Source: Escherichia coli | GTDB taxonomy: Bacteria; Pseudomonadota; Gammaproteobacteria; Enterobacterales; Enterobacteriaceae | Assembly: GCF_024502345.1 (NCBI RefSeq) | Contig: NZ_JALDNN010000001.1 | Direction: 5' to 3' (one strand) | DNA length: 64,000 nt | The notes under the pieces: model-generated | What the model was told of the DNA's origin: nothing | Database searches by the model: none | The model's input: the letters and a program-made list of their open reading frames with translations, nothing else | Shown: one piece after another, positions 17,270 to 49,333 of the stretch | How positions within the stretch are numbered: the first letter of the stretch is position 1 | Layout: the number at the start of each line of letters is the position of its first letter | Program-made: the position numbers and the translations under genes

Positions 17270-17296
17270 GAGAGGGGGCGCATAGTGCCCCCTCTC
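17270..17296 (+). terminator. Rho-independent terminator after yfdX2
   Basis: Perfect 10-bp GC-rich inverted repeat GAGAGGGGGC / GCCCCCTCTC with 7-nt loop, followed by a T-rich tract. Confidence 0.7.
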
Positions 17297-17350
17297 TTGT
17301 CCCATGAGTGTTTGATTTTTTATTTTGTATAGATCTTTAGGAGATATTGC

Positions 17351-17962
17351 ATGAACACAGACACCATCACCGATTCCAGTGCGGATGACCCCACCAAAGC
17401 ACTGTGTTCGCTTAGCCAAAATTGGTGGCTTTTTGTGCTGCGCGGTGTCTTGGCATTGATTTTTGCAGCCCTCGCGTTCTGGATGCCACAATCGGCTCTG
17501 TTGGCCATGACCATCATGTTCGGCGCATTTTCCTTGGTCAATGGCGCGTTCAACTTGTTTGCAGCGGTGCGCCATATCCAGAAAAAAGAGCGCTGGGGCT
17601 GGTTGTTGTTCAGCGGCATTGTCGGCATACTTACGGGCGTCGTCGTCCTGGTTGCTCCTTGGGTCGCCACGATAGTCTTGGCTTCTTTTTTATGGGCTAG
17701 CGTGGGCTTCTGGGCGATTTTCACCGGTGTGCTGGAGATATCTGCCGCCGTTCGGCTGCGTCGGGAAATCAAGGGTGAAATCTGGCTTGCCCTCAGTGGA
17801 CTGCTCTCGATTATCCTTGGTGCTATCGTCTTGTGGATATTTTTTACCCGTCCGGTCGAGTCATTCGTGGCCGCAGGCTGGCTGTTGGGTTTCCATGCGG
17901 CAGTCTATGGCGTCACGCTTTTGTTCTTGAGTTGGAGTCTTCGCAAAACGCGCCTGGGGTAA
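17351..17962 (+). CDS. hdeD: HdeD-like acid-resistance membrane protein
   Basis: 203 aa with multiple TM segments, HdeD-family-like. Confidence 0.8.
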   Translation: MNTDTITDSSADDPTKALCSLSQNWWLFVLRGVLALIFAALAFWMPQSALLAMTIMFGAFSLVNGAFNLFAAVRHIQKKERWGWLLFSGIVGILTGVVVLVAPWVATIVLASFLWASVGFWAIFTGVLEISAAVRLRREIKGEIWLALSGLLSIILGAIVLWIFFTRPVESFVAAGWLLGFHAAVYGVTLLFLSWSLRKTRLG

Positions 17963-18041
17963 GAGCGTGCCAAACCAAAATCTATGGATATGAGCATCCT
18001 CGATTCATGCCTCCATAGAAATGACATCGAAGGAGTCATAC

Positions 18042-19187
18042 ATGCAGATACAATATAGCTATCGAGCTATCGACAAAGAGTTTCATGAACCTTGGCAGAG
18101 AGCTTTGGGAAATGTGATCGAGCACGCCCTCAAGCCATTGCTCGACAAACACACTAAAGATTCAGCGCGACTTCAAATCGTCCTTGATCGCGACAAGATC
18201 AAGCGGCAATTTCTGGCCAGTGGCTATATGCACCTGCCCGGCAAAAAGATTGTCAGCGTTACTGCATCACATGACGAGCTGACGCCCCTCGCGCAGATGC
18301 TCGCACAGTCGTTGTTCCGTCAGGCCAAGAAGCATTTTGACCGACTGCATGCTCAGGATCAAATCAAGCGCAAAGCACGACGCGAGCGCTTGCGCGAGCT
18401 CAAGGTGCGGATTGCCGCAAAACCCGCATCAGCCGCCCATGAGGCCGAGGTGACCCGAATGCCTCTACTGTCGAAACTTGAGGCTGTCGCAAGGCGTGAG
18501 CTGGCTTATCTGCGGGCCGTCGGCGATTTACCGCGCGATTATCCGACGCTGCGCGACGTGGTGGATGAAGCGATTGTCCGAGCTAAGGTGGAATGGCAAT
18601 CCGTGCCGGGGGAAAAAGAGGCTTACACCGGTCTTTTGAAGCATCTGTTCGCCGTCCTGGATAACGAAGTGGCAAGCAGCCGGCAATTTGGCGAATTCGT
18701 TTCTCTGGACGCGCCGGTCGAACCGGATGCCCAAGACGTGGCCGAGGCCATGGTGGAAGAGGAAATCTTCGAATTTTATCAGCACGATGACACACTCAAG
18801 CTGGCCGATATTTTCGCTGGCAGTCAGCATCCCGATGTCGCAACGATCGCGGAACAGGAGGAGCTGATTGATCGGTCGAGCGAGTTCGCTTTTGCATTTG
18901 ACCTGCTGAAGGACATGCCGCGTTTGTGGCGGCGCATTTTTCTGCTTATCCGTGTGGACGGGCTGAATGCCAGCAGCGTCTCTGAAATCCTGCTGATTCC
19001 TAGTAAGGAAGATGCTGTCCAAAGGTGGCTCATGCAGGCCGAAGCATTCATCGCTGCTCATCTGGAAGAGGCCGGAGTAAGCAAAAACGGGAACGATTGG
19101 CTCCAAGGCGTTGATTGGCCGGCATTGTCTGTGACCCGAAGCGAGGCAGCCTCACTGTGGTCCAAGGAGGCGAACCATGAAGAATGA
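18042..19187 (+). CDS. Hypothetical protein, unknown function (LHR orf11 position)
   Basis: ORF 18021..19187; ATG 18042 preceded by GGAG; no recognisable motifs; GC content lower than neighbouring LHR genes. Confidence 0.6.
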   Translation: MQIQYSYRAIDKEFHEPWQRALGNVIEHALKPLLDKHTKDSARLQIVLDRDKIKRQFLASGYMHLPGKKIVSVTASHDELTPLAQMLAQSLFRQAKKHFDRLHAQDQIKRKARRERLRELKVRIAAKPASAAHEAEVTRMPLLSKLEAVARRELAYLRAVGDLPRDYPTLRDVVDEAIVRAKVEWQSVPGEKEAYTGLLKHLFAVLDNEVASSRQFGEFVSLDAPVEPDAQDVAEAMVEEEIFEFYQHDDTLKLADIFAGSQHPDVATIAEQEELIDRSSEFAFAFDLLKDMPRLWRRIFLLIRVDGLNASSVSEILLIPSKEDAVQRWLMQAEAFIAAHLEEAGVSKNGNDWLQGVDWPALSVTRSEAASLWSKEANHEE

Positions 19188-19617
19188 TCTTCACCTCGTC
19201 TGCCCGCATTGCCAGTCCATCAACCGCGTACCGACTGCGAAGCTATCGGAACATCCCAACTGTGGCCGCTGCCAGCAGCCCTTGTTCACGGGCGAGCCCA
19301 TCGAGTTGACCACGGCGACGTTCTCGCGCCACGTGGAGCGCAGCGATCTGCCGCTGCTGGTCGATTTCTGGGCGCCATGGTGCGGGCCGTGCAAGATGAT
19401 GGCGCCACAGTTCCAGCAAGCGGCGCACCAGCTCGAACCGACGATCCGGCTGGCGAAGGTGAATACCGAGGCTGAGCCCCACCTGGCCGCGCAGTTCGGT
19501 ATCCGCAGCATCCCGACGCTCGCCCTGTTCCAGGGTGGGCGGGAGATCGCCCGTCAGGCCGGCGTGATGGGCGCGCAGGACATCGTGCGCTGGACGTCGA
19601 CGCAAGTGGGACGCTGA
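19177..19617 (+). CDS. trx: Thioredoxin, TrxC-like, with N-terminal zinc-finger extension
   Basis: CPHCQ...CGRCQ N-terminal motif plus WCGPC active site. Confidence 0.9.
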   Translation: MKNDLHLVCPHCQSINRVPTAKLSEHPNCGRCQQPLFTGEPIELTTATFSRHVERSDLPLLVDFWAPWCGPCKMMAPQFQQAAHQLEPTIRLAKVNTEAEPHLAAQFGIRSIPTLALFQGGREIARQAGVMGAQDIVRWTSTQVGR

Positions 19618-19620
19618 CCG

Positions 19621-21336
19621 ATGCAGGGCTTGCTCGGCACTACGCTAATCCTGCTGGCGGCTTGCAGCCTGGCGGCGATGGCGACGGCGGCGTTCAGAGT
19701 GCCCGCCTTGCTGGGGTATCTCTCTGTCGGCGTTGTACTGGGCCCCTCAGTCATCGGCGTGATCGCGCCGGGGGAGACGCTGAGCTTTCTGTCCGAGCTG
19801 GGCGTGGCGCTGCTGTTGTTCATGGTCGGACTGGAATTCTCCCTCGGAGACTTCTGGCTCGCCCGCAGGACGGTGCTGATGGCGGGCGCTCTGCAGATGA
19901 TCGCCGTGGCCCCGCCGCTGATCCTGCTATTGATGTGGCTGGGGCAGCCCGGCCAGAGCGCCGCGCTGCTCGGCACTGCGGCGGCCATGTCGTCCACGGC
20001 GCTGGTCAGCCGACAACTGGCCGACCAAGGCGAGCTCACCACCCGCCACGGACGCAGTGCCATCGCCGTGCTGGTCTTTCAGGACCTGGCCAGCGTGCCC
20101 CTGCTGGCCTTGCTGGCGATCTGGGCGCGCGGCGACTCGCCGAAGATCGAGCATGTGCTGCTCGAAGTATTCGGTGTGCTGCTGCTGTTCGCGGCAGCGG
20201 CCCTCGCCTCGCGCCGTCTGTTGCATGGCCTGCTGGGCTGGGTGGCGCGGCGGGGCCACGAGGAATCGTTCGTGCTCGTCTCCTTGTGCGTGGTGGTGGC
20301 CGCCGCCGCCGCTGCGCACGCGGTCGGCGTATCTGCCGCCCTGGGGGCCTTCCTCGCCGGGATGGTGCTGGGCGAGAGCGACTTCCGGCACCACATGGAA
20401 AGCCACCTCAGGCCGTTTCGCGATGTGTTGTCGGGCGTGTTCTTCGTGACCATCGGCCTGCAACTGGACGCAGCACAGATTCTTTCGGCACCGCTGGCGG
20501 TGCTGGCGTGGCTGGTGGTGCTGGTACCGGTCAAGATCCTGCTCAATACACTGGCCTTGCGGGCGACGCGCCTGTCCGCCCTCGATGCCTGGCGCACGGG
20601 CATAGCGTTGGGGCACGGCGGCGAGTTCGCCCTGCTGTTGTTGGGCACGGTCTTGCAGCAGCATCTGATCCCCGCGACCGTCGTCCAACCCATGCTGGTC
20701 GCGCTGGTGCTCAGCATGGCCCTGGCACCGCTACTGATCCGCCATCACGATGTACTTGCCCGGTTCTTGAGCCGCACCGGCGGCGTCATTCAGCCACCCC
20801 AGGCTGAAGAAGTCGAGATCGCCGCGCAGACGACGCGATATCGAGACCATGTCATCATTTGCGGCGCGGGCGAGCTTGGCCTGACAGTCAGCGAGATTCT
20901 TCGCCACGCCGGCGTGGCGCATCTGCTGCTGGAGGCGGACGCGCAGAAGGTCGAGGCCGCGCGTGCCGCCGGCGCGCCGGTGTTCCATGCCGATGCCAGT
21001 CGGCCCGATACCTTGCTGGCTGCCGGCTTGACGCATGCACACTTGGTGGTGCTGACGTTCGCCCATGCCCAGCAAGCGTTGCGCATCGCCCAGGCGATTG
21101 CCGAGCACCGTCCGGCGCTGACCTTGTGGGTGTCATGCAGAAGTACGACCGCGGCCGATGCATTTCGCGCCATGCCCAACGTGCGCGTGTATCAGCAATC
21201 CTTTGCCGCAGCTATTGGGCTGGCGGAACAGGTGATGTCGACGCTTGGCATGTCGACCGAGCTGATTGAAGGACACATCAGCGCAATGCGCCGCCGTCTC
21301 GACAGCAGCCGTTTTCCAGGGAGTTCATCGTCATGA
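19621..21336 (+). CDS. kefB: KefB-like monovalent cation:proton antiporter (CPA2 family) with C-terminal TrkA-N/KTN domain
   Basis: Multi-TM N-terminal domain; C-terminal VIICGAGELG Rossmann-type KTN motif. Confidence 0.85.
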   Translation: MQGLLGTTLILLAACSLAAMATAAFRVPALLGYLSVGVVLGPSVIGVIAPGETLSFLSELGVALLLFMVGLEFSLGDFWLARRTVLMAGALQMIAVAPPLILLLMWLGQPGQSAALLGTAAAMSSTALVSRQLADQGELTTRHGRSAIAVLVFQDLASVPLLALLAIWARGDSPKIEHVLLEVFGVLLLFAAAALASRRLLHGLLGWVARRGHEESFVLVSLCVVVAAAAAAHAVGVSAALGAFLAGMVLGESDFRHHMESHLRPFRDVLSGVFFVTIGLQLDAAQILSAPLAVLAWLVVLVPVKILLNTLALRATRLSALDAWRTGIALGHGGEFALLLLGTVLQQHLIPATVVQPMLVALVLSMALAPLLIRHHDVLARFLSRTGGVIQPPQAEEVEIAAQTTRYRDHVIICGAGELGLTVSEILRHAGVAHLLLEADAQKVEAARAAGAPVFHADASRPDTLLAAGLTHAHLVVLTFAHAQQALRIAQAIAEHRPALTLWVSCRSTTAADAFRAMPNVRVYQQSFAAAIGLAEQVMSTLGMSTELIEGHISAMRRRLDSSRFPGSSSS

Positions 21337-21830
21337 AATCAACACGCCTTAACCCATTTCAGGTCTTACGTGACCAATTGGCCATCATGAGTTTTTACGA
21401 GCGCTTCGAGCAGGTCGTCGCGCTCGTGCTGTCGGCGGTGATCGCCGTCATCATCGTGGTGTCGCTGTTCCAGCTCATCTCCATCGTCTTCACGCTGCTG
21501 GTTCTAGATGCCTTCAATCCCCTGGACCACGAGGTATTCCAGAGCGTGTTCGGCATGATCATGACGCTCTTGATCGCGATGGAGTTCAAGCATTCCATCG
21601 TGCGCGTGGCGCTGCGTCGGGACAGCATCATCCAGGTCAAGACGGTGGTCCTGATCGCGCTGATCGCACTCTCCCGCAAGTTCGTGATCCTCGACTCCAA
21701 CGCGAGCCCCGCAAAGATAGCCGCGCTGGCTAGCGCCACGCTGGCTCTGGGTGCGACCTACTGGCTGCTGCGCAAGCGCGGCGACCGCGCCGCCGAGACC
21801 TCTGAGCATGACCCGTCATCATCCCAGTGA
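21333..21830 (+). CDS. psiE: PsiE-family membrane protein (phosphate-starvation-inducible E-like)
   Basis: 165 aa, four hydrophobic segments, PsiE-like. Confidence 0.7.
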   Translation: MKSTRLNPFQVLRDQLAIMSFYERFEQVVALVLSAVIAVIIVVSLFQLISIVFTLLVLDAFNPLDHEVFQSVFGMIMTLLIAMEFKHSIVRVALRRDSIIQVKTVVLIALIALSRKFVILDSNASPAKIAALASATLALGATYWLLRKRGDRAAETSEHDPSSSQ

Positions 21831-22773
21831 TCCGCGCACGGCGCTCTTGCAACACCGCTGGCTCAACCGCCTGCAGACCGGGCTGTTGGTCCTGACCCTG
21901 GTCGGGATCGCAGCCGCAGCAGGGAGACTGCCGTTTGGGGAAGGCTGCCTGTGGCTCGCGCTGTTTGCCATTGCAGGTGCGTTGCTGCTGGAACCGGTAG
22001 CCGCGTCGGCGCTGAGCTTGCGCCTGTACCGCGTACGGGCCTTGCACCCGCAAGAAGCCCACAAGATGTGGGCCCTATTGCGCGAGCTGCCCGCCCGTGC
22101 CGGTTTGCCCGCCACGCCGGTGCCGCACTATGTGCCCAGTGCCGTCGTCAACGCCTTCGCCACCGGATCGAAGCAGGAGGCATCGATCGCCCTCACCGAT
22201 GGCCTGCTGCGCAGCCTGAGCCCACGCGAGCTGGCGGGTGTGCTCGTGCACGAGGTCGCGCACATCGCTAATGAGGATCTGCGTGTCATGGGGCTGGCGG
22301 ATTCCGACAGTCGCCTCACGAGCCTACTGGCCCTTATGGGACAGATCGCGATCCAGCTCAGCCTGCCCGCGCAGCTGGTTGGCGCGGCGGAGGTCTATTG
22401 GCCTGGTCTATTGTTATTGGCCGCATCGCCCCAGCTGGCCCTGCTCGCACAGCTCGGCTTGTCTCGCGTGCGTGAGTTCGACGCTGACCGCCTTGCGGCG
22501 GAACTGACTGGCGACCCGCAGGGGCTGGCGTCCGTGCTGGCAAAAATCGAGCGGGTCAGCCGCTCCTGGCGTGCCTGGCTATGGCCGGGATGGGGCAATC
22601 CCGAGCACTCCTGCTTGCGTACGCGTCCGGCAACGCAAGAGCGCATTGCACGCCTGCTGACGTTGGCGCCTGGGCCAGCATCAGCGTTGCCACTCCGCGC
22701 GCCCCATTTTTTGCCGGAATCCGCTTTGGCGACGCGCCCACCGAGCTGGCGCCCGAGCGGGCTGTGGCGCTGA
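21808..22773 (+). CDS. Zinc metalloprotease, M48/HtpX-like
   Basis: HEVAHIANED zinc-binding motif with N-terminal TM segments; start placed at MTRHHPSDPR (ATG 21808), overlapping the psiE end. Confidence 0.75.
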   Translation: MTRHHPSDPRTALLQHRWLNRLQTGLLVLTLVGIAAAAGRLPFGEGCLWLALFAIAGALLLEPVAASALSLRLYRVRALHPQEAHKMWALLRELPARAGLPATPVPHYVPSAVVNAFATGSKQEASIALTDGLLRSLSPRELAGVLVHEVAHIANEDLRVMGLADSDSRLTSLLALMGQIAIQLSLPAQLVGAAEVYWPGLLLLAASPQLALLAQLGLSRVREFDADRLAAELTGDPQGLASVLAKIERVSRSWRAWLWPGWGNPEHSCLRTRPATQERIARLLTLAPGPASALPLRAPHFLPESALATRPPSWRPSGLWR

Positions 22774-22797
22774 TTGCCCATCAACAGGAGACGTCTC

Positions 22798-23949
22798 ATG
22801 GCCTATCTCGACCCGTACCAACGCCCCGCGCCGGACCGCTTCGTCCGGCGCGGGCTCTTCATCACCGCCTGCATTGCCGCGCTCATGCTGCTGTGGCAGT
22901 TTCTGCCCGCCATCGAGGCATGGTTCAGTCCGCGCGAGGCAGCAGAACGCACCGTGATGGCGCGTGGCGATCTGGCGGCGGACGAGAAAACCACCATCGA
23001 ACTGTTCGAAAAATCGCGCGCCTCGGTGGTCTACATCACCACCGCGCAATTAGTACGCGATGTCTGGACGCGCAACGTGTTCTCCGTGCCGCGCGGCACT
23101 GGCTCGGGCTTCATCTGGGACGACGCCGGCCACGTCGTCACCAACTTCCACGTCATCCAGGGCGCGTCCGAAGCCACCGTCAAACTGGCCGACGGCCGCG
23201 ACTACCAGGCCGCGCTGGTGGGGATGAGCCCCGCGCACGACATCGCCGTGCTCAAGATCGGCGTCGGTTTCAAGCGCCCGCCGGCCGTGCCGGTCGGCAC
23301 CAGTGCCGACCTCAAGGTGGGTCAGAAGGTGTTCGCTATCGGCAACCCCTTCGGCCTGGACTGGACGCTCACCACAGGTATCGTCTCCGCGCTCGACCGC
23401 TCGTTGCCGGGAGAAGCGGGCGGCCCGGCCATCGATCACCTGATCCAGACCGACGCCGCCATCAACCCCGGCAATTCCGGTGGCCCGCTGCTCGATTCGG
23501 CTGGGCGGCTGATCGGAATCAATACCGCCATCTACAGTCCGTCTGGCGCCTCGGCCGGCATAGGCTTTGCGGTGCCGGTCGATACCGTCATGCGCGTGGT
23601 GCCGCAACTCATAAAGACCGGCAAGTACATCCGTCCGGCACTGGGCATCGAGGTGGATGAGCAGATCAACGCGCGTCTGCAGGCGCTGACCGGCAGTAAG
23701 GGCGTATTCGTATTGCGCGTGACGCCGGGCTCGGCGGCGCACAGGGCCGGGCTCGTCGGCGTCGAGGTCACCGCAGGCGGCATCGTGCCCGGCGATCGCG
23801 TTATCAGCATCGACGGTATCGCCGTCGACGACGTCACCACATTACAGGCCCGGCTAGACGACAAGAACGTTGGAGATGTTGTGGTCTTGTTAGTGGAGCG
23901 GGCCGGCAAGACTCGCGAGATGCTTGTGGAACTACAACCGGGAGTTTGA
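22798..23949 (+). CDS. degP: DegP/HtrA-family periplasmic serine protease with one PDZ domain
   Basis: Trypsin-like core (VVTNFHVI...DIAVLKI...GNSGGPL) followed by a PDZ-like C-terminus; ATG 22798 after CAGGAG. Confidence 0.88.
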   Translation: MAYLDPYQRPAPDRFVRRGLFITACIAALMLLWQFLPAIEAWFSPREAAERTVMARGDLAADEKTTIELFEKSRASVVYITTAQLVRDVWTRNVFSVPRGTGSGFIWDDAGHVVTNFHVIQGASEATVKLADGRDYQAALVGMSPAHDIAVLKIGVGFKRPPAVPVGTSADLKVGQKVFAIGNPFGLDWTLTTGIVSALDRSLPGEAGGPAIDHLIQTDAAINPGNSGGPLLDSAGRLIGINTAIYSPSGASAGIGFAVPVDTVMRVVPQLIKTGKYIRPALGIEVDEQINARLQALTGSKGVFVLRVTPGSAAHRAGLVGVEVTAGGIVPGDRVISIDGIAVDDVTTLQARLDDKNVGDVVVLLVERAGKTREMLVELQPGV

Positions 23950-24173
23950 TGGAAAGTGGGTCATGGATCTGCACAGCGAAGCAGCCAAGCGACTTCAGCC
24001 TTGCGCCGAACTACGAGCCCTAGCTAGGGATGGTCTGAAGTAGCCCTGTATTTCCGGCTGACTTCAGCCACTGCTGATTTTGAAAGCGGTGAACCGATCA
24101 AAAACGATCGGATCACCCGCTCATTTCGGTGCTTTCAGCCGTCGCGAGCACCTTGCGACGGCCATTTTCCGCA

Positions 24174-24770
24174 TTACAGGCGCACCTCTCCTGCGCTTGC
24201 CAGCAAATGTCGGCGGGCCATCCATAGGTTCGACAGGGCAAACAGCGTCACCAGTTGTGCAGTGTTCCTCACCAGCCCTCGGAAACGTACCTTGGTGTAG
24301 CCGAACTGCCGCTTGATCACGCGAAACGGGGGCTCTACCTTCGCTCGCACTTGCGCCTTGGCCTTCTCGATCTTGCGCTTGGCTTTGTACAGGGCGCTGC
24401 GTTTATCGAGCATCTTGTAGGTGCTGCGGCGTGCTGCGACCTGCCAGATCACTTCTCGGTCGGCATGCTCGGAGCGCTTTTCGACGCCGGTGTAGCCGGC
24501 ATCGGCGCAGACGACGTTCTCGTCGCCGTGCAGCAGCTTGTCGACCTGGGTGACATCCGCCACGGTGGCTGCCGTGCCCACCACGCTGTGTACCAGCCCC
24601 GATTCATCATCAACGCCGATGTGCGCCTTCATGCCAAAGTAATACTGGTTCCCCTTCTTGGTCTGGTGCATTTTCGGGTCGCGCTTGCCGTCCTGGTTCT
24701 TGGATGAACTGGGCGCGTGGATCAGCGTGGCATCGACGATAGTCCATCTTGATAATATCGGGCCGCTCAA
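24174..24770 (-). pseudogene. IS5-family (DDE_Tnp_1) transposase, N-terminally truncated fragment
   Basis: ...HIGVDDESGLVHSVVGTAATVADVTQVDKLLHGDENVVCADAGYTGVEKR... parallels the IS5 InsH core; first ~130 codons absent. Confidence 0.75.
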
Positions 24771-24911
24771 CGCTCGGGTACCAGGAGGTGACGGACCCGT
24801 ATACCAAAGAAAAATACTTTGAGTACGCCCATGACGGCAAACTGATGGGGCAGCTACTGATACCCTCGAACCCTGACAATCAGGAATAAAACAACGACAA
24901 AGGAGACAAGA

Positions 24912-25379
24912 ATGACAATACTTTCACTAAGTCGGTTTATGCTGGCGGGTGTACTGCTCGCGAGCTTTAATGCCTCTGCTATCCCGGGGTTCTGGCAGCA
25001 GGGTTACGGTCAGGGCAATACGGAATACAGCGTGACCGAAGCCAGCGGAAAGACGTTTACCATCAACTGCACAGGGAACCCGGACCAGAATGGTTTCTAT
25101 CAGCATTCAGTCTTTCTTACCCTTGCCGATGACAAGATGGTCAGTTCGCACGATGACGACACTACTATCACCGTAGTGATGGATCACCAGCAGTACATTA
25201 TTCCGTCCAGCCTGGGCTGGCGTAACGGCGATAACGCCTGGTTTGACTTCATCAGCAATATCTCTGAGGCCGGGCAGTTCGACGTCTACGTCAATGACCA
25301 CAAAGCAGGGACCTTCACTGCGGACCGGAAGAACACTGAGAAAGTTCTGTCCACTCTCGGAGACTGCAGCAACGACTGA
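24912..25379 (+). CDS. Hypothetical secreted protein (signal peptide); position corresponds to ykfB of the K-12 CP4-6 prophage
   Basis: [23 protein letters not shown] signal-like N-terminus; 155 aa; symbol not assigned because only synteny and length support it. Confidence 0.6.
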
Positions 25380-25455
25380 TAGTAGTATCTTCCCCAGCAA
25401 ATCCACCCCGACAGCTAGCAGGCTGCCGGGGTTTTCTTTTATCAGGAGCCCGAAA

Positions 25456-25695
25456 ATGACCCAATCCGTGTTGCTGCCACCGGGGCCTTTCACCCGGAGA
25501 CAAGCGCAAGCGGTCACTACCACGTACAGCAATATCACACTCGAAGACGACCAGGGCAGTCACTTCCGTCTGGTGGTTCGTGATACTGAAGGCCGGATGG
25601 TCTGGCGGGCATGGAACTTTGAGCCGGATGCCGGTGAAGGTCTTAACCGCTATATCCGCACCTCAGGCATCCGTACAGACACGGCCACCCGCTGA
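25456..25695 (+). CDS. ykfF: DUF905-family small protein (YkfF/YfjW-like)
   Basis: [79 protein letters not shown]; AGGAG RBS. Confidence 0.65.
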
Positions 25696-25792
25696 TCGCG
25701 AAGCATTTACCCGCATTCACCTCCCCGAACACACTTTATATCCCCATACGCCAGCCATCGCCGCTGGCGTTTTTATTGACGGAGACATACCC

Positions 25793-26251
25793 ATGACAAC
25801 ACAGACGCAGCACGACCTCGCACCCGCTAACCAACCCGAATTTGAACTGACCGTCACGCCGGTCCCCGATGAACAGCGTATCGATTTCTGGCCACAGTAC
25901 TTTGGCGCTATCCCGCAGTGGCTACTCCTGGAGCCGCATATCTTCGCCTGGATGGACCGCTTCTGTGAGGGCTACAGCGGTGGTATCTGGTCGTTCTACA
26001 CCCTCAGCAATGGCGGCGCATTTATGTCCCCCGAGCCTGACAACGATGAGACATGGCGTCTGTTTAACTGCCTGAACGGTAACGATGCCCAAATGAGTGC
26101 AGAAGCAGCAGGTATTGCTGTCTGCCTGATTGCGTATAGCCACCATGCCTGCCGTACAGAATGTGACGCGATGACCGCACACTATTACCGCCTGCGGGAG
26201 TATGCCATGCAACATCCAGAGGCTCACGCCATTCTGCGTATTATCGACTGA
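25793..26251 (+). CDS. yafX: Antirestriction protein, KlcA/ArdB family (YafX/YfjX-like)
   Basis: 152 aa; ...IWSFYTLSNGGAFMSPEPDNDETWRLFNCLNGNDAQMSAEAAGIAVCLIAYSHH... typical of the family. Confidence 0.75.
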   Translation: MTTQTQHDLAPANQPEFELTVTPVPDEQRIDFWPQYFGAIPQWLLLEPHIFAWMDRFCEGYSGGIWSFYTLSNGGAFMSPEPDNDETWRLFNCLNGNDAQMSAEAAGIAVCLIAYSHHACRTECDAMTAHYYRLREYAMQHPEAHAILRIID

Positions 26252-26266
26252 CCGAAGGAGCAACAG

Positions 26267-26743
26267 ATGAAACAGCTTTCCTTTTTACCCGGCGAGATGA
26301 CGCCACAGGACCGGCGTCTCATTCAGCGGGCGCTCAGGGCTCTGGACCGCCACCTGCATGAGCCCGGCGTAGCCTTCACCTCTACCCACGCCGTACGTGA
26401 ATGGCTGCGACTGCATATGGCCGCGCTTGAGCGGGAAGAGTTCCGGGTGTTGTATCTGGACAACCAGAATCAGTTGATTGCCCATGAAACGCTCTTCACC
26501 GGCACGATTAACCGCACCGAGGTGCATCCCCGGGAGGTGGTCAAACGTGCTCTGCACTTCAACGCGGCGGCGGTGATACTCGCGCATAACCATCCTTCCG
26601 GCGAGACGACACCTAGCCAGGCCGACAAAACCCTCACGCAGCGACTGGTTCAGGTGCTTCAGCTGGTGGATATCCGTGTCCTTGACCATCTGATTGTCGG
26701 TGGCAGGCAAATCTATTCGTTCGCAGAACACGGTCTGCTTTGA
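26267..26743 (+). CDS. ykfG: RadC-like JAB-domain protein (YkfG/YeeS/YfjY family)
   Basis: HNHPSGETTPSQADKTLTQRL JAB/MPN-type motif. Confidence 0.75.
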   Translation: MKQLSFLPGEMTPQDRRLIQRALRALDRHLHEPGVAFTSTHAVREWLRLHMAALEREEFRVLYLDNQNQLIAHETLFTGTINRTEVHPREVVKRALHFNAAAVILAHNHPSGETTPSQADKTLTQRLVQVLQLVDIRVLDHLIVGGRQIYSFAEHGLL

Positions 26744-26751
26744 GGTATTAC

Positions 26752-26973
26752 ATGAAAATTATCAGTAAACGCAGGGCAATGACGATATACCGCCAGCATC
26801 CTGAGTCCCGAATCTTTCGCTACTGCACCGGCAAATACCAGTGGCACGGTAGCGTCTGTCATTACACCGGCAGGGACGTTCCGGATATCGCCGGAGTCCT
26901 CGCGGTATACGCCGAACGCCGCCAGGACCGCAATGGGCCCTATACCTGCCTGATGAGCATCACCCTGAACTGA
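26752..26973 (+). CDS. ykfH: DUF987 protein (YkfH/YeeT family)
   Basis: MKIISKRRAMTIYRQHPESRIFRYCTGKYQWHGSVCHYTGRDVPDIAGVLAVYAERRQDRNGPYTCLMSITLN. Confidence 0.75.
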   Translation: MKIISKRRAMTIYRQHPESRIFRYCTGKYQWHGSVCHYTGRDVPDIAGVLAVYAERRQDRNGPYTCLMSITLN

Positions 26974-26991
26974 CAATAGTGGAGAACTGTA

Positions 26992-27671
<680 letters not shown>

Positions 27672-29696: not shown

Positions 29697-30587
29697 TTAA
29701 TCAATAATGCGCAGAATGGCGCTGGATTCAGGGTGCTGCAGAACGTAATCCCGCAGGCGGTAATAGTGTTCAGTCATGGCATTGCATTCGGTGCGACAGG
29801 TGTGATGGCTGTATTCAATCAGGCAGACAGTGATACCTGCGGCTTCCGCGCTCATTTGCGCACTATTGCCGTTCATGCCGTTGAACAGGTGCCATTTATC
29901 GTCACCGTCAGCATCAGGGGCCATAAACGCTCCGCCATTGCTGAGCGTATAAAAGGACCAGATACCGAAAGTCATCTCCGACTGGCTGCCGAAGCGAACT
30001 CCGGCGCGGATATGCTGTGCGCTACCGTCACCAAAGTTCACGTAGCCTCCATTGTCATGACCGTTATTCAGGGACAGCCCCTGCCAGATATACTGAAGCT
30101 GCGGCTCCAGTATCAGGCCATTGGTCACACTGAACGGCAGACCCGTTTCCAGCGAACCCAGCCAGCCCCAGCCGTGGGTAGCGAAACTGTCTGCATCAGA
30201 CGTCGCTTTCAGGTTATGACGGGAGCCCTGAGCCACCACATCTGTCCACAGGCCGCTGGCGGCATGCACGGCGGTCAGATAACCGCCCAGGCTGTACACA
30301 TCATCACGGGCACTCCCGGCACGGGAGCGGTCATCGTCTTTTATATCAACAGAAGAATGTCCCGCTGCACCATACACACCGGCTTTCAGCGAAGAGTTGC
30401 TCAGCAAGTCGCCGCCCAGTTGTACAAAGCCGTAGCTGCCGCTGCTTTCCGGTATCGCACCCTGCGCAATTCCGCCGTTATTTTCATGCCCCATATGACC
30501 ACCCTGGATGCGCCCCCAGACTCCGCTGCCACCTTTGACCGCGCTGCGCTGGTTGTAGCTACCTGCCAGTGCGCGGTCATAGTCCAT
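29697..30587 (-). pseudogene. Chimeric ORF: autotransporter beta-barrel-like fragment (Ag43/Flu-like) fused in frame to the C-terminal ~87 aa of a KlcA-family antirestriction protein
   Basis: N-terminal ~200 aa with beta-barrel-like alternating aromatics (YGFVQLGGD, GGYLTAVHAASGLW) ending ...GSQSEMTFG, then IWSFYTLSNGGAFMAPDADGDD... matching the KlcA paralog from its residue ~66. Confidence 0.6.
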
Positions 30588-30646
30588 GCTCTGCGCAAAC
30601 AGCGAAGCATAAAGAGCAACTTCAGCACGATAGCCAGCTTCGCTGG

Positions 30647-31012
30647 TCAGATACCCACAGCTTCACCCGCCAGACAGGGCGCGTCGTTGCAGTTCAGCAG
30701 CAGGCTGACCAGTCGACGGTCCAGCCCCGGAAACAGATCGGCTACACCTGTACGATGAGCGAAGGTCAGCACATCCAGCTCGGCCTGCGCACCACTCACG
30801 CCCGTCCGCAGGCGGTAACAACCGTTGCTACATTCAAGATCCAGATACATCAGCCGTTCGCGAAAATCGCGGTACAGAGTACGAGCAGATACACCAAACT
30901 CTGCTGTCAGCCTGCGCATATTCAGCGTTTCACCTGCAACGAGGCGACTGATAATCAGCGACAGCCTGATCGCCAGCCTGTCGTGGCGGCGCTCTGTCTG
31001 TGTCATTATCAT
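30647..31012 (-). pseudogene. HTH transcriptional regulator fragment (N-terminal domain of a YfjR-like regulator), C-terminally truncated
   Basis: 121 aa with [26 protein letters not shown], similar to the N-terminus of the WYL regulator at 37105. Confidence 0.55.
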
Positions 31013-32149: not shown

Positions 32150-33013
32150 TCAGAAGAAGAAATCCCAGACAGCACGGGCCACTGATACCACGGTGGTGCG
32201 CATGGCCTGAATGATGGTCCGCACCGGAGTCGGTATCAGTGGGAAAGTACTCACCGTATCCAGCACCGCACCGATAGTTTCACCAAAATCAACGCGCGCT
32301 TTTTCCTGGACTACTGTTGTGCGAAAGGGAGGCTGCAGTTGCGCGACCACCGGGCTGCTGGCCTCGCGCGGCAGGCAGCGAATCATTCTCTCCGCCATTG
32401 TTCGTAATCCCCATTTAGCCCGGACCGATACGGCACATACAGGATGAACAGGCTGGAACAATTCATGCAGCAGGCAAATTTTACGGCTAATGTTTTGCTT
32501 CTGCTCTATGGATAAGTAACCGCCACCGCAAGTGGGTTCGGTCTTGTCCGACTGACTAATAACAAACAGCACCTTATGCCGGTATGACTCACCAATTATC
32601 TGATGATAAAAATGCTCATCCACCGCCAGCGCCCGATCATCGGCCTTGATCAGCCACAGCACCAGGTCGAGCCGGGGAAGCTGATCACGGTACAGCCCGG
32701 CATACTCGCTATCGCGTGCACTACTTTCCCCTACGCCGGGCAGGTCCACCAACGTCATAACGCGCTCGCCAACCTGAAGGCGAAAGCGCAGAGGTTCCCG
32801 GGTACAGGCCACCACATCGCTGACAGGCGATACCTCACCAGCAAACAGGGCATTGCAAAGGCTACTTTTGCCTGCTCCCGTTTTACCCATAATACCTATG
32901 ACCGGTTCATACTCAGTTATCTGTCTTATTTGTTGCAATAAATGCTCAGTAACCCATTCAGGTAATCCAGATACCGGTTTTAGCAAAGAAGAATAACCGT
33001 ATTTATTTTTCAT
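32150..33013 (-). CDS. P-loop GTPase, YfjP/YeeP/YkfA family
   Basis: GIMGKTGAGKSSLCNALF Walker A/G1, DLPG G3-like motif. Confidence 0.8.
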   Translation of the reverse strand: MKNKYGYSSLLKPVSGLPEWVTEHLLQQIRQITEYEPVIGIMGKTGAGKSSLCNALFAGEVSPVSDVVACTREPLRFRLQVGERVMTLVDLPGVGESSARDSEYAGLYRDQLPRLDLVLWLIKADDRALAVDEHFYHQIIGESYRHKVLFVISQSDKTEPTCGGGYLSIEQKQNISRKICLLHELFQPVHPVCAVSVRAKWGLRTMAERMIRCLPREASSPVVAQLQPPFRTTVVQEKARVDFGETIGAVLDTVSTFPLIPTPVRTIIQAMRTTVVSVARAVWDFFF

Positions 33014-33103
33014 AACACCACCCTCTTATTGATAATAAAAAGGCAGCTTACATAACTGCCTTTTTTAATCCTTCATAGGGATGATATATATCTAAAAAAA
33101 CAT

Positions 33104-34018
33104 TCAGCGTGGATTAAATTTTTGTTTCCATGCCAGATGAATAGCAAATTCAATGACTCTGGCATTTGAGATCCCTTCTCTAACAGATATATCACGAAGC
33201 TTATCATGAGTCTCCTGAGAAATGATCACGTTAAGGGCTTTATTTTTATCTGCGCGTTTCTTCTCTCGACTTTTCTGTGTGCTCAATGCACTTTTAAATT
33301 TTCTTATGAATAGTTCTTTTTCTGCTTCAGTCCTAAAAACATCCTCACGCCAGATAAAATATGACGCATAACAATATGCGATTTTTTCTTCTATTCCTTC
33401 AGCATGCCGATATTTTTGCAAGGTAACATTATTTTCCTGCAAATAATTCAGCAACCAGTCAATGGTCACCCCTGCTTTCCCATTGACATCAGAAAATAAA
33501 TTTTTCTTTGTGATTAATTCATTCCACGCATTATGTAATTTTAGGATGTATTGTCTGGTGTTTCCTTCAGAAATGCTTTTTACAACTTTATCTTTGATAA
33601 GCCGCACCCGAAGATTATGGACTGGTGGAATATCGAATCCTAAAGTGAATGGTTCATTTAACAGCGAATTTTCTGCCTGAACAGGGAATGTGTCTGTATA
33701 GGGTGCACAACTTAGGGTTACCTGTTCTTGATCTGTTTTACAAAGTAACCAGTAACTAGCCCTGGAATCTGTGGTGAACCATTCAAGCTCATCTTCACAT
33801 GGAATCTCTTTTTTAGCCTCAACCCGGGTGTTATTGATAAAAATATCTACTTCTCTTTCGGAACCTTTATTCCCACTCAATAATAAATTGCGCACTCTCT
33901 TTTCATAGTTTGCAAGATTTGCTTCGGACGACTCAGGAGGAATATCAATCTCGAATTTCTTTAATTTAAAGTACAAAAATAAAATGAGATTCCTTTCATC
34001 ATAAAATGAAACCACCAC
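33104..34018 (-). CDS. Hypothetical protein with C-terminal ribbon-helix-helix-like segment; unknown function
   Basis: 304-codon low-GC ORF, GTG start after AGGGGG; no internal Met; C-terminal NVIISQETHDKLRDISVREGISNARVIEFAIHLAW resembles a CopG/Arc-type RHH. Confidence 0.5.
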   Translation of the reverse strand: MVVSFYDERNLILFLYFKLKKFEIDIPPESSEANLANYEKRVRNLLLSGNKGSEREVDIFINNTRVEAKKEIPCEDELEWFTTDSRASYWLLCKTDQEQVTLSCAPYTDTFPVQAENSLLNEPFTLGFDIPPVHNLRVRLIKDKVVKSISEGNTRQYILKLHNAWNELITKKNLFSDVNGKAGVTIDWLLNYLQENNVTLQKYRHAEGIEEKIAYCYASYFIWREDVFRTEAEKELFIRKFKSALSTQKSREKKRADKNKALNVIISQETHDKLRDISVREGISNARVIEFAIHLAWKQKFNPR

Positions 34019-34431
34019 TACCCCCTTGTCACTACGTGATTATAGGTACAAAAATGCCCATTTTTGCACATTAACTCAATGAGTTATTGTTGATAACGTG
34101 TATACGGTCACGAAAATTTGGCTTCTTGAGGACTGGGGGGATAGCAGAGGGGAAGAAGTAAAAGAACTATTTGGGTTCTGGATTACAAAGGGATATAAAA
34201 CTCTAAGCGTAAATATAAACAGATTGAAATATCCATAACGAATTATGAAAAACCTTACTGCTTTATATGCATGAAGAGGGACATTTCAATTTCCAGAATC
34301 ACTTAAAAGGCTCATTATATTTTTTACATAACAACCGGTTGTTATGCCTGAACGCGAACTCAATTCCAAATTGAGCTCTGCCACACTAATAACAACCGGA
34401 GAATCTAATATGATAACTGAAACACTATTAA

Positions 34432-35626
<1,195 letters not shown>

Positions 35627-35650
35627 TTAACTGAAGACAAATTAGTTGAC

Positions 35651-35815
35651 ATGTTATTTATCACCACCCTAACTGGATTAACTGACAAGTGGTTCTATAA
35701 ATTAATTAAAGATGGTGAATTTCCAAAACCTATTAAGCTAGGGAGAAGTTCTCGCTGGTTACAGAGTGAAGTTGAAAATTGGTTAAGAGAACGAGTTAAA
35801 GCATCGCGAAGCTGA
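35651..35815 (+). CDS. alpA: AlpA-family prophage transcriptional regulator (small HTH)
   Basis: MLFITTLTGLTDKWFYKLIKDGEFPKPIKLGRSSRWLQSEVENWLRERV, AlpA-like; the IS5 right end lies 25 bp upstream of this start. Confidence 0.7.
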   Translation: MLFITTLTGLTDKWFYKLIKDGEFPKPIKLGRSSRWLQSEVENWLRERVKASRS

Positions 35816-36184: not shown

Positions 36185-36799
36185 ATGATGCTTAATGATA
36201 TTTATCTTGATCAACGTCATGCCCCATTCAATACAATGTATCTGCAACGGATGCTTCGCGTGATTAATAACGCTACAGCACAATACCCACGAACAATGGT
36301 TGTCCGTGTAGACCTACGACTTCCTGATAACCACGATGAATGTAAGGCTGGTCTTATCTCTCGATTTATAGAATCGCTTAATGCAAAGATTGAAGCACGA
36401 TATCGAAGCAAACTAAAGCAGGGTATTCGATGCTACCCATGTCATTTACGTTACGCCTGGGTCCGAGAGGTTGGAGAAGTAAACAAGAAGTCTCATTACC
36501 ACATGGTACTCTTTGTGAATAAAGATACTTTCAACGGGTTAGGGGTGTACGGTGAAGATGGAACTGGATTAGCCAGCCTGATACAGGCAGCCTGGCTAAG
36601 TGCCTTACAGTTGAGCCCTCCCACCGGATATCGAACGCTGGTACATATCCCGGACAACCCATTGTATTACCTGGACGTCAATAATTTAGACTACAAAACG
36701 GTTTACGATAAACTCACTTTCAGGCTGAGTTATTTTGCGAAAGAGCGCACCAAATCATACAGCCGGAATGAACGCTCATTTGGCTGCAGCCAGTCCTGA
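36185..36799 (+). CDS. YagK/YfjJ-family protein (inovirus Gp2-like domain)
   Basis: 204 aa; position after alpA as in CP4-57; family assignment from memory of YfjJ-like sequences. Confidence 0.55.
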   Translation: MMLNDIYLDQRHAPFNTMYLQRMLRVINNATAQYPRTMVVRVDLRLPDNHDECKAGLISRFIESLNAKIEARYRSKLKQGIRCYPCHLRYAWVREVGEVNKKSHYHMVLFVNKDTFNGLGVYGEDGTGLASLIQAAWLSALQLSPPTGYRTLVHIPDNPLYYLDVNNLDYKTVYDKLTFRLSYFAKERTKSYSRNERSFGCSQS

Positions 36800-37034
36800 G
36801 ACAAAACAAACTAAGTCTATAAAGATTTTTTCAGCCTGGCTCTAATCGACTGAATCTCAGCATACTCCGCTTTTGAAGCCTTGACACGTCAGTTGTTCTT
36901 TCACCTCTGAGTGGCTACTCGCGACTGCCTGCAGGAGACTGATTATGTTATTGACCGCAAAATCCATTAACTGACTTTTCGACTTAATCTCCTTAAGTTA
37001 TGTGAGAAATTTGCCGATATGAAAACATGATCCC

Positions 37035-37071
37035 CCAGTCGCTACTGACATGCCCTGTCAGTAGCGACTGG
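37035..37071. promoter_or_regulatory. Perfect 16-bp inverted repeat with 5-bp spacer, 34 bp upstream of the WYL regulator start; candidate operator
   Basis: CCAGTCGCTACTGACA-TGCCC-TGTCAGTAGCGACTGG; not followed by a T-tract, so unlikely to be a terminator. Confidence 0.5.
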
Positions 37072-37104
37072 TAATCTCAAGGAAAAATTACAAGGAGAAC
37101 GCGC

Positions 37105-45900: not shown

Positions 45901-48900
45901 CGCATCATACTGCCAGCGGAATAACTCTCTTCGTCAATACGGCTCTCGCTGTACGCTTACCCATCTAGAGAGGTTTCAGGTGATTATCGATGTCAGAAGA
46001 CTGAATGATTCAGTCGTTTACTTTGAGATAGATCAGAGGTTTTTCACTACCTGTGTTCATCACATGGCTACGAATAGTAGAATCCAAGCATAAATTAACG
46101 CTTAGAAAAGTTGAGCTCATGAGATTCCACCCTGAAGGGCCTTCCATACCCGATATCCTCTTAGAACGCTGTGATACAGGTCGAGTTGTATTTCTCTGTG
46201 GCGCTGGGGTTTCATTACCTTCAGGGATGCCAAGCTTTGTAGAGCTTACCCAGCATGTAATTGAATACTTTGACCCACCACACGATTCAGAAATCATGGC
46301 AGCATTTCGCCCATGGCTTCACGACCAATCTTCAGCTAATGTCCCTCTCGACCAAATTTTCAACCTCCTACATCTGGAATATGGCAAGGATGAGGTGAAT
46401 GCTTTGGTATCAAAGCGTCTGGGGACTGCAAGAACTGATATAGAGATTGGACGTGAGCATGCCCTGATTAAAAGAATTTCCTCAAATCAGAGTGGTGTCC
46501 CACAGATTGTCACAACGAACTTTGACCGACTGTTCGAGGATAACCAAGCGCAAGATAATCTAACTCGATATGTGCCGCCAGCTTTCCCAAATCTGAATTT
46601 CGGTTCGACAATTGAGGGAATAACATATCTTCACGGCCGCCTGGTCGACGAAAATGCTGTAAACCATCCTTATGTGCTGAGCAGTGCAGACTTTGGAAGA
46701 GCATATCTTTCAGAAGGATGGGCGACCAATTTTATTAAGCTTCTTCTGGAACGATACATCGTTGTTTTGGTCGGTTATCAGGCAGAAGACCCACCAGTTA
46801 AATACCTCCTTCAGGGTCTCAATCATGATGGCCAGTATGATCGTTCCAGACTTTATGCATTTGATCGCGGCCTTGCCGAGGATATCGAAGCCAAATGGCG
46901 TGACAGAGGAGTTACAGCCATAGCCTATTCCGATCATCCAGCTCTTTGGAAGACTTTGGAAGCATGGGCTGAGCGAGTAGATGATCCACGTCGATGGCGA
47001 GCTTCTATTATCGCTAAAAGCCAGCAAGATCCGAAAGTTCTAGCACCGTATGAACGTGGTCAACTTGCCCATATACTTCGCACTACACAAGGTGCGAAAT
47101 TGTTCTCTGAAGCTGTTCCTCTTCCCCATCCAGAGTGGCTTTGTGTGATGGATGCAAATATTCGGTCAGCCAAACAGAAGAAAAGATACTACGAACTTGA
47201 TGACAATGATGCAGAGACCTTCGATCCACAAGAAGCTTATGGGCTTGATGACGATCTGCAAGATATCGCTGATGATGAACGTAAACGTGGAGTGAGTAAC
47301 GATAATCTCCTTGAATGGCGCGACGAAGATGATAACCCGTCAGATTACCATCGCTTGGCTGGATGTTTGGAGACAATGCCGAAACGATTGAGCCATCTCA
47401 TGGTCTGGTTCTGCAAATCTCTTGATAGCCCCGTGATGGCTTGGTGGGCTATCCGAAAAATCAGTATTCATCCTCTACTACTACAAAATATTGAACGCAA
47501 TATTGAGCATTCAACATCAATCCACAAACGCGCTCGTCAACTGTGGGGCTTAATTCTTGAACATCATAAAGATCCCCGCAATCGTCGTTATGACGTCGAT
47601 TGGTACGACTTAAAAGCTCGAATTACAAAACAAGGCTGGACAGCTGGTGTCTTACGAGAATTTCGTAGGGTAATGACACCCCGATTGGAAAAGAAGTTGC
47701 CGTATGGATTGGGTGAAGTCAGACCGCCAAGCGGCTCCTGGGAGGAAATTCAGTTCAGCGAATTTGGCCAATTTGAAGTTGTGTTCACCGAAAGACATGA
47801 TGACGATTTAGACGTACCTGACAATGTATTACTACAAGTATTTAATGCCTTAGAAGCGCAAATAATAACTGCCTCCGGAATGTTAGAGGATATTGATACG
47901 CACTACTTTCCAAGCCCAAGTTGTTATCCAGAACGTGCGGTTGAAGGAGAAGAACATTTCGCGAAAGGTGCGGAGGTATTAACTTGGTTTGTCCAACTTT
48001 TAGACCGAGTTGTTATGAAGTGGCCAGAATTGGCTAAGGCATACGTAACAACTTGGCCAGTTAAGGAGCCATTTTTCTTCCGAAAGCTTAGACTTTATGC
48101 ATTCAGTAAAAAAGGCGTCTTTGAGGCTGACCGTGTTGCCGAAGAGCTTTTGTCTTTGGATCAAAGTGGATTTTGGGACACAAATATTACCCGCGAACTT
48201 CTTTTTCTGCTCACTGATCGTTGGGAAGAATTCTCGCAAGAAAATCAGAATCGAATTATAGAGCATATATTAACCGGCCCGAACCATTTACTTTATTTGT
48301 CTGAGGAAGACATTCCAAAAGAAAGAGAGATATTAGCAGCTAGATACGCTCGTTATCTCGAACTAAACGGCTGTAAAGTAACCACTATTCATCGTGACCA
48401 ACTAACTGCGATGATTAAAAGAATTCCTGACTGGAATGATGGCTGGGCTACATCTGTTGTCATCAATTGGGGTTCACGGACAGGTTGGGTTCGTACAGAC
48501 GAAAAGCCAGATATAATCTTAGATCTTCCAGCAAACGAAATAATCCCAAAAGTAAAAGAGATACTTAAACGAGAGGATGATAGCTTTACTAGTAGGCAAC
48601 CCTTTGTCGGATTGATAAAAGAAAATCCGCGTAAAGCTTTGTCTGCACTCGCTATTGCAGGGAGAGGCGGTGATTACCCTAAGGAATTTTGGTCGCCAAT
48701 GATAAGTGAGTTACCTATAGATCTTAAACCAAGGGTGAGACGAGTATTCCTGAACCGAATTGTGCGATTGCCAGTTACAGCTTTGGTCGAGTTACGACAT
48801 ACATTAAGTAACTGGCTTGAACAAAATTTAGCTGCGACTCTTGAATTTGATGAGGATCTCGGGTGGGCAGTTTACGATCATGTCATAGCAGGCATACTGA

Positions 48901-49333
48901 GTGGTGGCGCCAGTGCAATACGGAGTAGTTTCGGAGAAGTTATCCGGAATGGAGAAGTTGTAATACAGTCTCGCCGCACGTTCAGTCATGCAATCAATGG
49001 TCCTGTCGGTAAATGTACTCAAGCGCTTTTTCAAGCAATGCCAAGTGAAGAGAAAAAAGCTGGTTCGCTTATTCCTTACTCTATTAAGTCTCGTATTGAA
49101 CATCTTTTTACTGCACCAGGAGAAGGAGCGGACCACGCTATAGCTATAACGTCTCGCAATCTAAATTGGCTAATGTTTGTTGATCCTGCATGGGTAAAGG
49201 AATGGCTTATACCCCTTTTGGATTTAAAACATCCTGCAGCAGAACCAGTATGGAATGGTTATCTTCAGTGCAATGCTATGCCTTCAATTGCAGTAGCTGA
49301 ACTTATTAAACCAGCTTTTCTTAACCTTATCCC

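Follow-up and report, generated by a model that had tools for sequence, protein, structure and literature searches.

The window analyzed here is a stretch of 64,000 nucleotides from Escherichia coli (contig NZ_JALDNN010000001.1). It carries a CP4-type genomic island in which a gene on the minus strand (33104..34015, hereafter the RHH gene) encodes a protein of 303 amino acids with a predicted ribbon-helix-helix (RHH) DNA-binding domain at its C terminus. We consider it fairly probable that this protein is an autoregulated transcription factor of the island, acting as an autorepressor at its own promoter. Dimeric repressors of the RHH type include CopG, Arc, Mnt, MetJ, and ParD, and most such repressors, like many RHH antitoxins, regulate their own synthesis from palindromic or repeated operators lying across their own promoters. 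From the sequence we infer that the protein binds a palindrome found at its promoter and represses transcription there, that its N-terminal part has a role in this, and that it may have targets beyond that promoter. Residue numbers throughout follow the 304-codon open reading frame (ORF) that begins one codon upstream of the start preferred here.

Predicted C-terminal domain and candidate operator

The predicted RHH domain (33116..33244, minus strand) covers residues 259-301 and consists of a strand (KALNVIISQ) followed by two helices (residues 268-281 and 285-301), so that the last ~45 residues form a strand-helix-helix tail with a strand of alternating hydrophobic and polar residues. It is entered by a conserved basic helix (33245..33328, minus strand; residues 231-258, ELFIRKFKSALSTQKSREKK) that was delimited with alignments A1, A2, and A5, is helical in the AlphaFold model, and contains three residues (F237, K249, and R251) that the alignments show to be nearly invariant throughout the superfamily. 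Residues 253-294 matched the RHH family RepB-RCR_reg (Pfam PF10723) with 21.7 bits against a curated cutoff of 21, and when 31 members of the protein family were scanned individually, PF10723 was found in 17, RHH_1 in five, and RHH_7 in four of them. The C terminus was also matched by PHROG 3180, 'Arc-like repressor' (E = 3e-4), the top PDB sequence match of the family profile was ORF56, the RHH protein of plasmid pRN1 (E = 0.18), and the only credible Foldseek matches in the BFVD viral library were short RHH, CopG, and HicB-tail proteins. The monomer AlphaFold model (pLDDT 79.5) contained an extended segment at residues 259-267 and, behind it, helices 268-281 and 285-301. Since the strand of an RHH domain needs a partner, two copies of residues 228-304 were joined by a flexible linker of 25 residues and modelled with an alignment made of tandem copies of 32 homologues. 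Each copy in this fusion adopted the strand-helix-helix order (pLDDT 70-81 in the RHH part), and because strands 32-40 and 134-142 make up the sole sheet of the model, they would pair with each other. A C-terminal RHH-like module had been proposed in the earlier note, which was made from the letters of the window alone; the profile and structure matches agree with it, and the structure prediction that the note had suggested as a check returned an RHH-like tail rather than some other fold. On the strength of these matches and models, we assign the C terminus of the protein to the RHH superfamily (CopG/Arc/MetJ) fold.

The promoter of the RHH gene has a perfect -10 hexamer, TATAAT (34039..34044, minus strand), 23 nt upstream of the start codon, and the aligned position in homologous loci reads TAAAAT, TAAATT, or GTAAAT. 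The candidate operator is a 13-bp palindrome, ATCAC-GTA-GTGAC (34028..34040), that covers two bases at the end of the -10 hexamer together with the expected transcription start, which is the classic geometry of a repressor site. Its TCAC and AGTGA are invariant in eight aligned upstream regions with a mean column identity of 57%, although the proteins encoded downstream are only 32-93% identical, and in two of these eight loci the site is a perfect ATCACTnAGTGAT. Of 21 loci scanned, 17 had an exact ATCAC-N3-GTGAY at the RHH-gene promoter, in most of them as the sole copy in the retrieved DNA, and the window likewise has one exact site. The four loci without it belong to distant Citrobacter and Vibrio subfamilies, and they encode other ribbon residues (SLQVFID, VNVQFFL, YNFVMG) in place of LNVxIS. 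Such a correspondence fits a ribbon that reads the palindrome, but common descent of protein and promoter could equally account for it. Two further palindromes, CAAAAATGGGCATTTTTG (34049-34066) and TAACTCATTGAGTTA (34072-34086), together spanning 34049..34086, lie over the -35 region and upstream of it; these are lineage-specific and were seen in the window, L001, L002, and L015. A second conserved block was noticed ~60 nt upstream of the -10 hexamer, in the region of window positions 34100-34110 (columns ~121-131 of alignment A3, which compares the upstream regions); it reads TACATGAAA in most loci and TACACGTTA in the window. Searching the promoter and the leader region downstream of the RHH gene against Rfam gave nothing meaningful.

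In the mechanism that we propose, two C-terminal RHH domains would pair into a dimer, or into a higher oligomer through the N-terminal domain, and the two-stranded ribbon of the dimer would read the ATCAC-N3-GTGAY that abuts the gene's own -10 hexamer. The bound protein would then block RNA polymerase at the transcription start and shut off its own transcription, while the N-terminal part, made of two helical modules of ~75 residues and a connecting helix, may serve higher-order assembly or the reception of a signal. The RHH gene, having its own promoter, its own operator, and a terminator-like hairpin, would form a largely self-contained unit between the alpA/yagK genes, which are of excision and replication type, on one side and the leader of the GTPase-to-cbtA operon on the other. 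The protein probably helps to set the expression state of the island, and it might also control alpA/yagK or the read-through into the backbone operon.

Several points weigh against an autorepressor. The PF10723 score barely exceeds its cutoff, and the tandem model is of moderate confidence (mean pLDDT 62.8) and depends on an artificial linker. The -35 element is weak, which is why a consensus promoter scan missed this promoter. As the upstream regions can be aligned, the palindrome is perhaps a promoter feature kept by common descent, and it could also serve another conserved protein of the island, such as AlpA or the WYL regulator. Finally, a motif scan of the window and of the fetched loci revealed no second copy of the operator near alpA or the GTPase leader, which leaves regulation of the neighbouring genes unsupported.

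A conserved family with a duplicated helical domain

The ORF called mechanically (33104..34018, minus strand) is uninterrupted and has 304 codons when counted from the first of two adjacent GTG codons. The earlier note had started it there and had credited it with a good ribosome-binding site, and the latter is indeed present as the Shine-Dalgarno sequence AAGGGGG (34021-34027, minus strand). The start itself, however, most likely lies at the second GTG (34015-34013), for a product of 303 rather than 304 residues, because the Shine-Dalgarno spacing is 5 nt to this codon and 2 nt to the first, because the ATG of the homologues lines up with it in alignment A3, and because PGAP annotates 303 residues in three E. 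coli genomes. The same note was right in two further remarks, namely that the protein contains no internal methionine (its only one is the initiator) and that the gene is poor in GC (36.3%, compared with 52.3% in the adjacent GTPase gene and ~50% in the flanks). This difference recurred in every locus examined, with 32-41% for the RHH gene and 52-59% for the GTPase gene. The ORF is a real gene under purifying selection and not a chance reading frame: dN/dS was 0.19 between the window copy and a 93%-identical copy from Enterobacter, and 0.10 between two other orthologues.

The protein is not the orphan for which it had been taken. A first search of 5.8 billion proteins gave 30 clusters with full-length matches (33-93% identity), all named 'hypothetical', from Citrobacter, Enterobacter, Hafnia, Pectobacterium, Dickeya, Yersinia, Salmonella, and Klebsiella. 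Further members, from Vibrio and elsewhere and with lengths of ~290-335 residues, came from an exhaustive HMMER scan of 1.84 billion representatives, and a profile search brought the number to 55 clusters from Enterobacterales and Vibrio that share the full architecture of ~300 residues. Across the family, databases offer no names other than 'hypothetical', 'RHH domain-containing', and 'CopG family'. Remote full-length homologues are found in E. coli islands too: strains W24 and 873.10 encode, in the same slot of the island, 'hypothetical' proteins of ~305 residues that are only 15-17% identical but can be aligned over their full length to the family profile (hhalign probabilities of 99.3% and 99.7%, E = 4e-20 and 4.5e-27). 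The subtype present in the window is rare (three of 5,426 complete E. coli genomes), and a pattern scan with a narrow alignment found seven loci in 100,044 species-representative genomes. No homologue was detected by tblastn in phage collections or on 72,556 plasmids, and all fetched loci with the RHH gene are chromosomal islands. YfjH of K-12 (318 residues, encoded divergently from alpA in CP4-57) was considered as a remote homologue and rejected (hhalign probability of 0.1%). It is hardly credible that the gene is a relic in AT-rich DNA that is decaying or has lost its function. Its low GC content, GTG start, and the rarity just mentioned could be taken for signs of decay, but low GC is typical of the gene in every locus examined, full-length conservation extends over ~55 clusters with dN/dS of 0.1-0.2, the Shine-Dalgarno sequence, promoter, and palindrome are conserved, and the helical model is confident (pLDDT 79.5).

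AlphaFold predicted residues 1-230 to be entirely helical. Two repeats can be discerned in this part, the first (33713..33940, minus strand; residues ~27-102) ending in ELEWFxxDxRASYWLL with the invariant W80 and having helices with pLDDT of 84-93, and the second (33419..33643, minus strand; residues ~126-200) ending in VTIDWLLNYL with the invariant W188. An hhalign comparison of the two halves of the family alignment pointed to an internal duplication (probability of 89%, E = 2.2e-6, 75 columns). As the earlier note had said, this part holds no motif that can be placed: residues 1-230 had no match in PADLOC, NCBIfam, PHROGs, or Pfam, and PDB sequence searches with the single sequence, the family profile, and an N-terminal-only profile returned nothing above chance level for it (434 repressor, E = 0.38; DsrC/TusE, E = 0.7-1.4; Cas5c, E = 0.07). 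A profile search with the N-terminal part alone revealed no other architectures, all matches having the layout of ~300 residues. By these sequence comparisons it is a new domain, duplicated and predicted to be all-helical, with no detectable relative in Pfam, PDB, or phage protein libraries. The positions that are invariant or nearly so in the superfamily (W80, W165, W188, W223, F237, K249, and R251) look like residues of a hydrophobic core and of the basic helix, and not like a catalytic constellation. The combination of a duplicated helical domain with a C-terminal RHH at a fixed place in CP4-type islands appears to be undescribed so far, and in the literature on island GTPases, yfjJ/yagK, and RHH with AlpA we found no study of the RHH gene.

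These features bear on the suggestion of the earlier note that the protein might be a single-chain toxin-antitoxin or abortive-infection protein, with a toxic N-terminal effector that is restrained or autoregulated via the RHH tail. Antitoxins often contain RHH domains, one or two distant family members weakly match RelB, HicB, or CopG-antitoxin (E = 0.004-0.14), one Vibrio member is followed by a gene pair for an AAA ATPase and an HNH protein, and another island carries rnlAB at the equivalent position. Nevertheless, we regard this possibility as very unlikely. No family in PADLOC-DB 2.0 matched the protein at E values up to 10, no match to a toxin or enzyme family was obtained for residues 1-230, conservation falls mainly on Trp, Phe, and other residues of core type, and the profile search never found the N-terminal domain alone or with another partner. 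Furthermore, no small partner or toxin gene is adjacent, the downstream neighbour being the GTPase gene beyond a hairpin with a T-run and the upstream one the divergent alpA, and the position of the gene beside regulatory genes is stable. The neighbouring GTPase itself matched only a P-loop stretch of LeoBC in PADLOC. That the RHH gene has stayed intact while the island was damaged is neutral on toxicity.

Island setting and neighbouring genes

The island lies at the thrW tRNA-Thr(CGU) gene and adjoins proA, proB, and phoE. Downstream of the RHH gene, a YeeP/YkfA/YfjP-type GTPase of 287 residues (32150..33013, minus strand; identified by Pfam MMR_HSR1, E = 2.8e-15, and by synteny) opens a conserved backbone that runs through DUF932 and further genes to RadC, CbeA, and CbtA. 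On the other side lies alpA (34410..35815, plus strand), which is split by an IS5 element (34432-35626, target duplication TTAA) into pieces 34410-34431 and 35631-35815, and beyond it, in the same divergent unit, a YagK/YfjJ-type (inovirus Gp2 / Rep-like) gene (36185..36799, plus strand; PF11726, E = 2.6e-51). This order was alike in all 20 enterobacterial loci first fetched, where a divergent alpA, often together with a yagK/yfjJ-type gene, is followed by the RHH gene, the GTPase gene, and DUF932, and then, where the sequence reaches that far, by antirestriction, RadC, CbeA, and CbtA genes. In the enterobacterial loci the RHH gene is separated from alpA by 400-600 bp and from the GTPase gene by ~90-110 bp, with a gap of ~1 kb before the GTPase gene in the Kluyvera locus L016. 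Gene order is kept down to 21% protein identity (Citrobacter subfamily). Divergent alpA and/or yagK-type genes also lie upstream of the family gene in L023, L030, and four Vibrio loci, an exception being L026, where an HTH gene is co-oriented. The family gene lies near alpA in the four Vibrio islands, three of which have a yagK-type gene directly divergent from it, although the GTPase backbone is absent or otherwise arranged. The yagK-type gene is a recurrent neighbour of the family. Among Vibrio loci we also noted, in V. campbellii L011 (9185-11097), that the pair following the family gene encodes an AAA_15/AAA_21 ATPase and an HNH nuclease, and in V. cholerae L027 (312-1298) that the divergent yagK gene has an MMR_HSR1 GTPase on its other side, a hint that NTPase modules are recurrent neighbours of the family outside the enterobacterial backbone.

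The earlier note had placed the gene in a variable region of the island, and this holds in so far as the slot differs between islands. As noted there, rnlAB takes the equivalent place in K-12 CP4-57, and this place lies immediately upstream of the GTPase gene yfjP; perR fills it in a CP4-6-type island, and 1.2 kb of non-coding DNA does so in two other islands of E. coli. No decayed copy of the RHH gene was found in the islands with a non-coding slot. The RHH gene itself, however, sits exactly where the variable part meets the conserved backbone, fixed relative to alpA and the GTPase gene, and its synteny with the regulatory genes of the island over 21-93% protein identity makes it unlike shuffled cargo. 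The GTPase gene of CP4-type islands matched 4,663 of the 5,426 complete E. coli genomes.

The space between the RHH stop codon and the GTPase gene contains a leader block, AGATATATATCATCC (33079..33093, minus strand), which directly follows the stop codon and whose consensus CAGAyAGATATTATC was defined from invariant columns of alignment A4, and then a hairpin, GGCAG...CTGCC followed by TTTTTATTAT (33032..33066, minus strand), that according to RNAfold looks like an intrinsic terminator or attenuator. Every homologous locus examined has a GC-rich hairpin at the equivalent place, and a T-run usually accompanies it. The leader block and the hairpin also precede the GTPase gene in islands that have perR or non-coding DNA in place of the RHH gene, and when an island with the RHH gene is compared with one that has none, homology begins exactly at the leader block, so the block belongs to the GTPase operon. 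This leader (TTCAGAyAGATATTATCyC, the hairpin, and usually a T-run) was observed in every CP4-like island examined, whatever lies upstream, and in L022, L023, L024, L025, and L026 it is placed ~80 nt upstream of the GTPase genes. It could be a promoter plus attenuator or a target for antitermination of the backbone operon. The RHH gene looks like a unit complete in itself that has its place between alpA and the GTPase leader.

Of the alternatives to an autorepressor, which rank in decreasing probability as an Stl-like sensor-repressor, an origin or relaxosome accessory factor, and the toxin-antitoxin or abortive-infection protein discussed above, the first assumes that the protein is the master repressor and sensor of the island: it would silence the island including alpA/yagK until a phage or helper protein binds its N terminus and lifts the repression. 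In islands of both enterobacteria and Vibrio, the RHH gene does run divergently from alpA and/or yagK-type (Rep-like) genes, and its product diverges fastest in the neighbourhood (32-56% identity, compared with 67-79% for AlpA, 76-93% for DUF932, and 50-84% for the GTPase). The islands moreover carry defence cargo (McrBC and a type I restriction-modification system in L003-L006, PDC-M09 and Dsr1 in the window), and Pseudomonas islands of the related int/alpA/RadC/Gp2-like type are mobilised by phage (10.1101/2024.08.29.610337). Still, the sole conserved palindrome is at the gene's own promoter, ~380 bp from alpA, no homologue was found in phage records, and the proposal extends autorepression rather than excluding it; we regard it as doubtful. 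Its more specific form, in which the protein would be the silencing switch of CP4-type defence islands, its RHH end repressing alpA/yagK along with its own gene and its fast-diverging helical domain serving as receptor for a phage or helper-element protein, so that infection would lead to excision, replication, or transfer of the island, we consider unlikely.

The second alternative is an architectural DNA-binding accessory for island mobility, similar to TraY, NikA, or TrwA, which would mark an origin for YagK/YfjJ or for a helper relaxase. The best profile match is to RepB/CopB plasmid replication regulators, the gene that recurrently adjoins is a YagK/YfjJ gene with a Rep ORF2/G2P-like region, and the backbone genes for antirestriction, DUF932, and RadC resemble genes of plasmid leading regions. 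On the other hand, the palindrome overlaps the -10/start of the gene's own promoter as a repressor site does, no nick-site-like repeat array was seen, no homologue was found on the 72,556 plasmids, and the match of the YagK protein to PF23343 (REP_ORF2-G2P) stays below the cutoff (26.8 against 27.8 bits). Such an accessory role is, in our view, quite unlikely.

The rest of the window gave several side observations. Variable cargo beyond alpA (36185-49364) comprises the YagK/YfjJ gene, a WYL regulator, PDC-M09 (A and B), which is a candidate defence system in PADLOC, a protein of 840 residues, and a Dsr1-like SIR2 protein. Set beside the near-identical island of E. coli PSJ-29, the island of the window is heavily damaged: its Ag43 adhesin gene and its WYL (yfjR-like) gene are broken by deletions of 656 bp and 2,235 bp, and insertion sequences (IS) interrupt the PDC-M09A-like gene (two) and the Dsr1-type SIR2 gene (one); the damaged sites are at 29963-30655, 38065-39121, 39488-40849, and 49334-50390. 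The RHH, GTPase, and DUF932 genes are intact in this island with its four IS insertions and two deletions. Window positions 9000-27500 (58-67% GC) hold the locus of heat resistance, or transmissible stress-tolerance locus (clpK, kefB-GI, an FtsH-like protease, and others), which is 99.8% identical to other E. coli copies and of which at least 80% is present in 107 of the 5,426 complete genomes.

Likeness to known repressors and meaning for CP4-type islands

Among known systems, the copy-number repressors CopG, RepB-RCR_reg (PF10723), and CopB-RepA2 share the RHH, give the best profile match, and also have a Rep-like gene nearby; by analogy with them, a dimer sitting on a palindrome that overlaps its own promoter would be expected for the window protein. 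They are, however, plasmid-borne proteins of 45-90 residues that consist of the RHH alone and are co-transcribed with rep, whereas the window protein has 303 residues with an extra domain of 230 residues, belongs to chromosomal islands, and is encoded divergently from the Rep-like gene. Membership in the PF10723-type plasmid replication regulators was rejected on grounds of size, context, and the NCBIfam RepA score (19.7 bits against a cutoff of 87). Arc and Mnt of P22 have the same fold, and in Mnt the RHH is likewise joined to a second, tetramer-building domain, but there the RHH is N-terminal and followed by a short coiled coil, while in the window protein it is C-terminal and preceded by a large duplicated helical domain. 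HicB antitoxins have the parts in the same order, a larger N-terminal domain and then an autoregulating C-terminal RHH, with the difference that the N terminus of HicB is mixed alpha/beta and binds the adjacently encoded HicA, whereas that of the window protein is predicted to be all-helical, is unrelated, and has no toxin gene adjacent to it. Stl of the SaPI islands and other master repressors of phage-inducible islands are, as here, encoded in the island divergently from excision or regulatory genes and have a variable part that does not bind DNA; Stl, however, has an N-terminal helix-turn-helix and no relation in sequence or fold to the window protein. To our knowledge, derepression by a helper has not been documented for CP4-type islands. 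The products of rnlAB (CP4-57) and perR (CP4-6), as well as YfjH (divergent from alpA in CP4-57), are comparable in gene position but are unrelated proteins.

CP4-type islands (CP4-6, CP4-44, CP4-57, and relatives) are widespread in E. coli and carry defence systems, adhesins, and toxin-antitoxin modules. The RHH family offers a concrete handle on their regulation, as it pairs a predicted DNA-binding protein with a candidate operator of defined sequence. Were the protein to do no more than regulate itself, it would be an ordinary addition to the RHH repertoire, and it would be more interesting if it were a switch of these widespread islands; should it prove to be the silencing switch, it would represent a Gram-negative, RHH-based counterpart of the SaPI repressor Stl for a very widespread class of islands.

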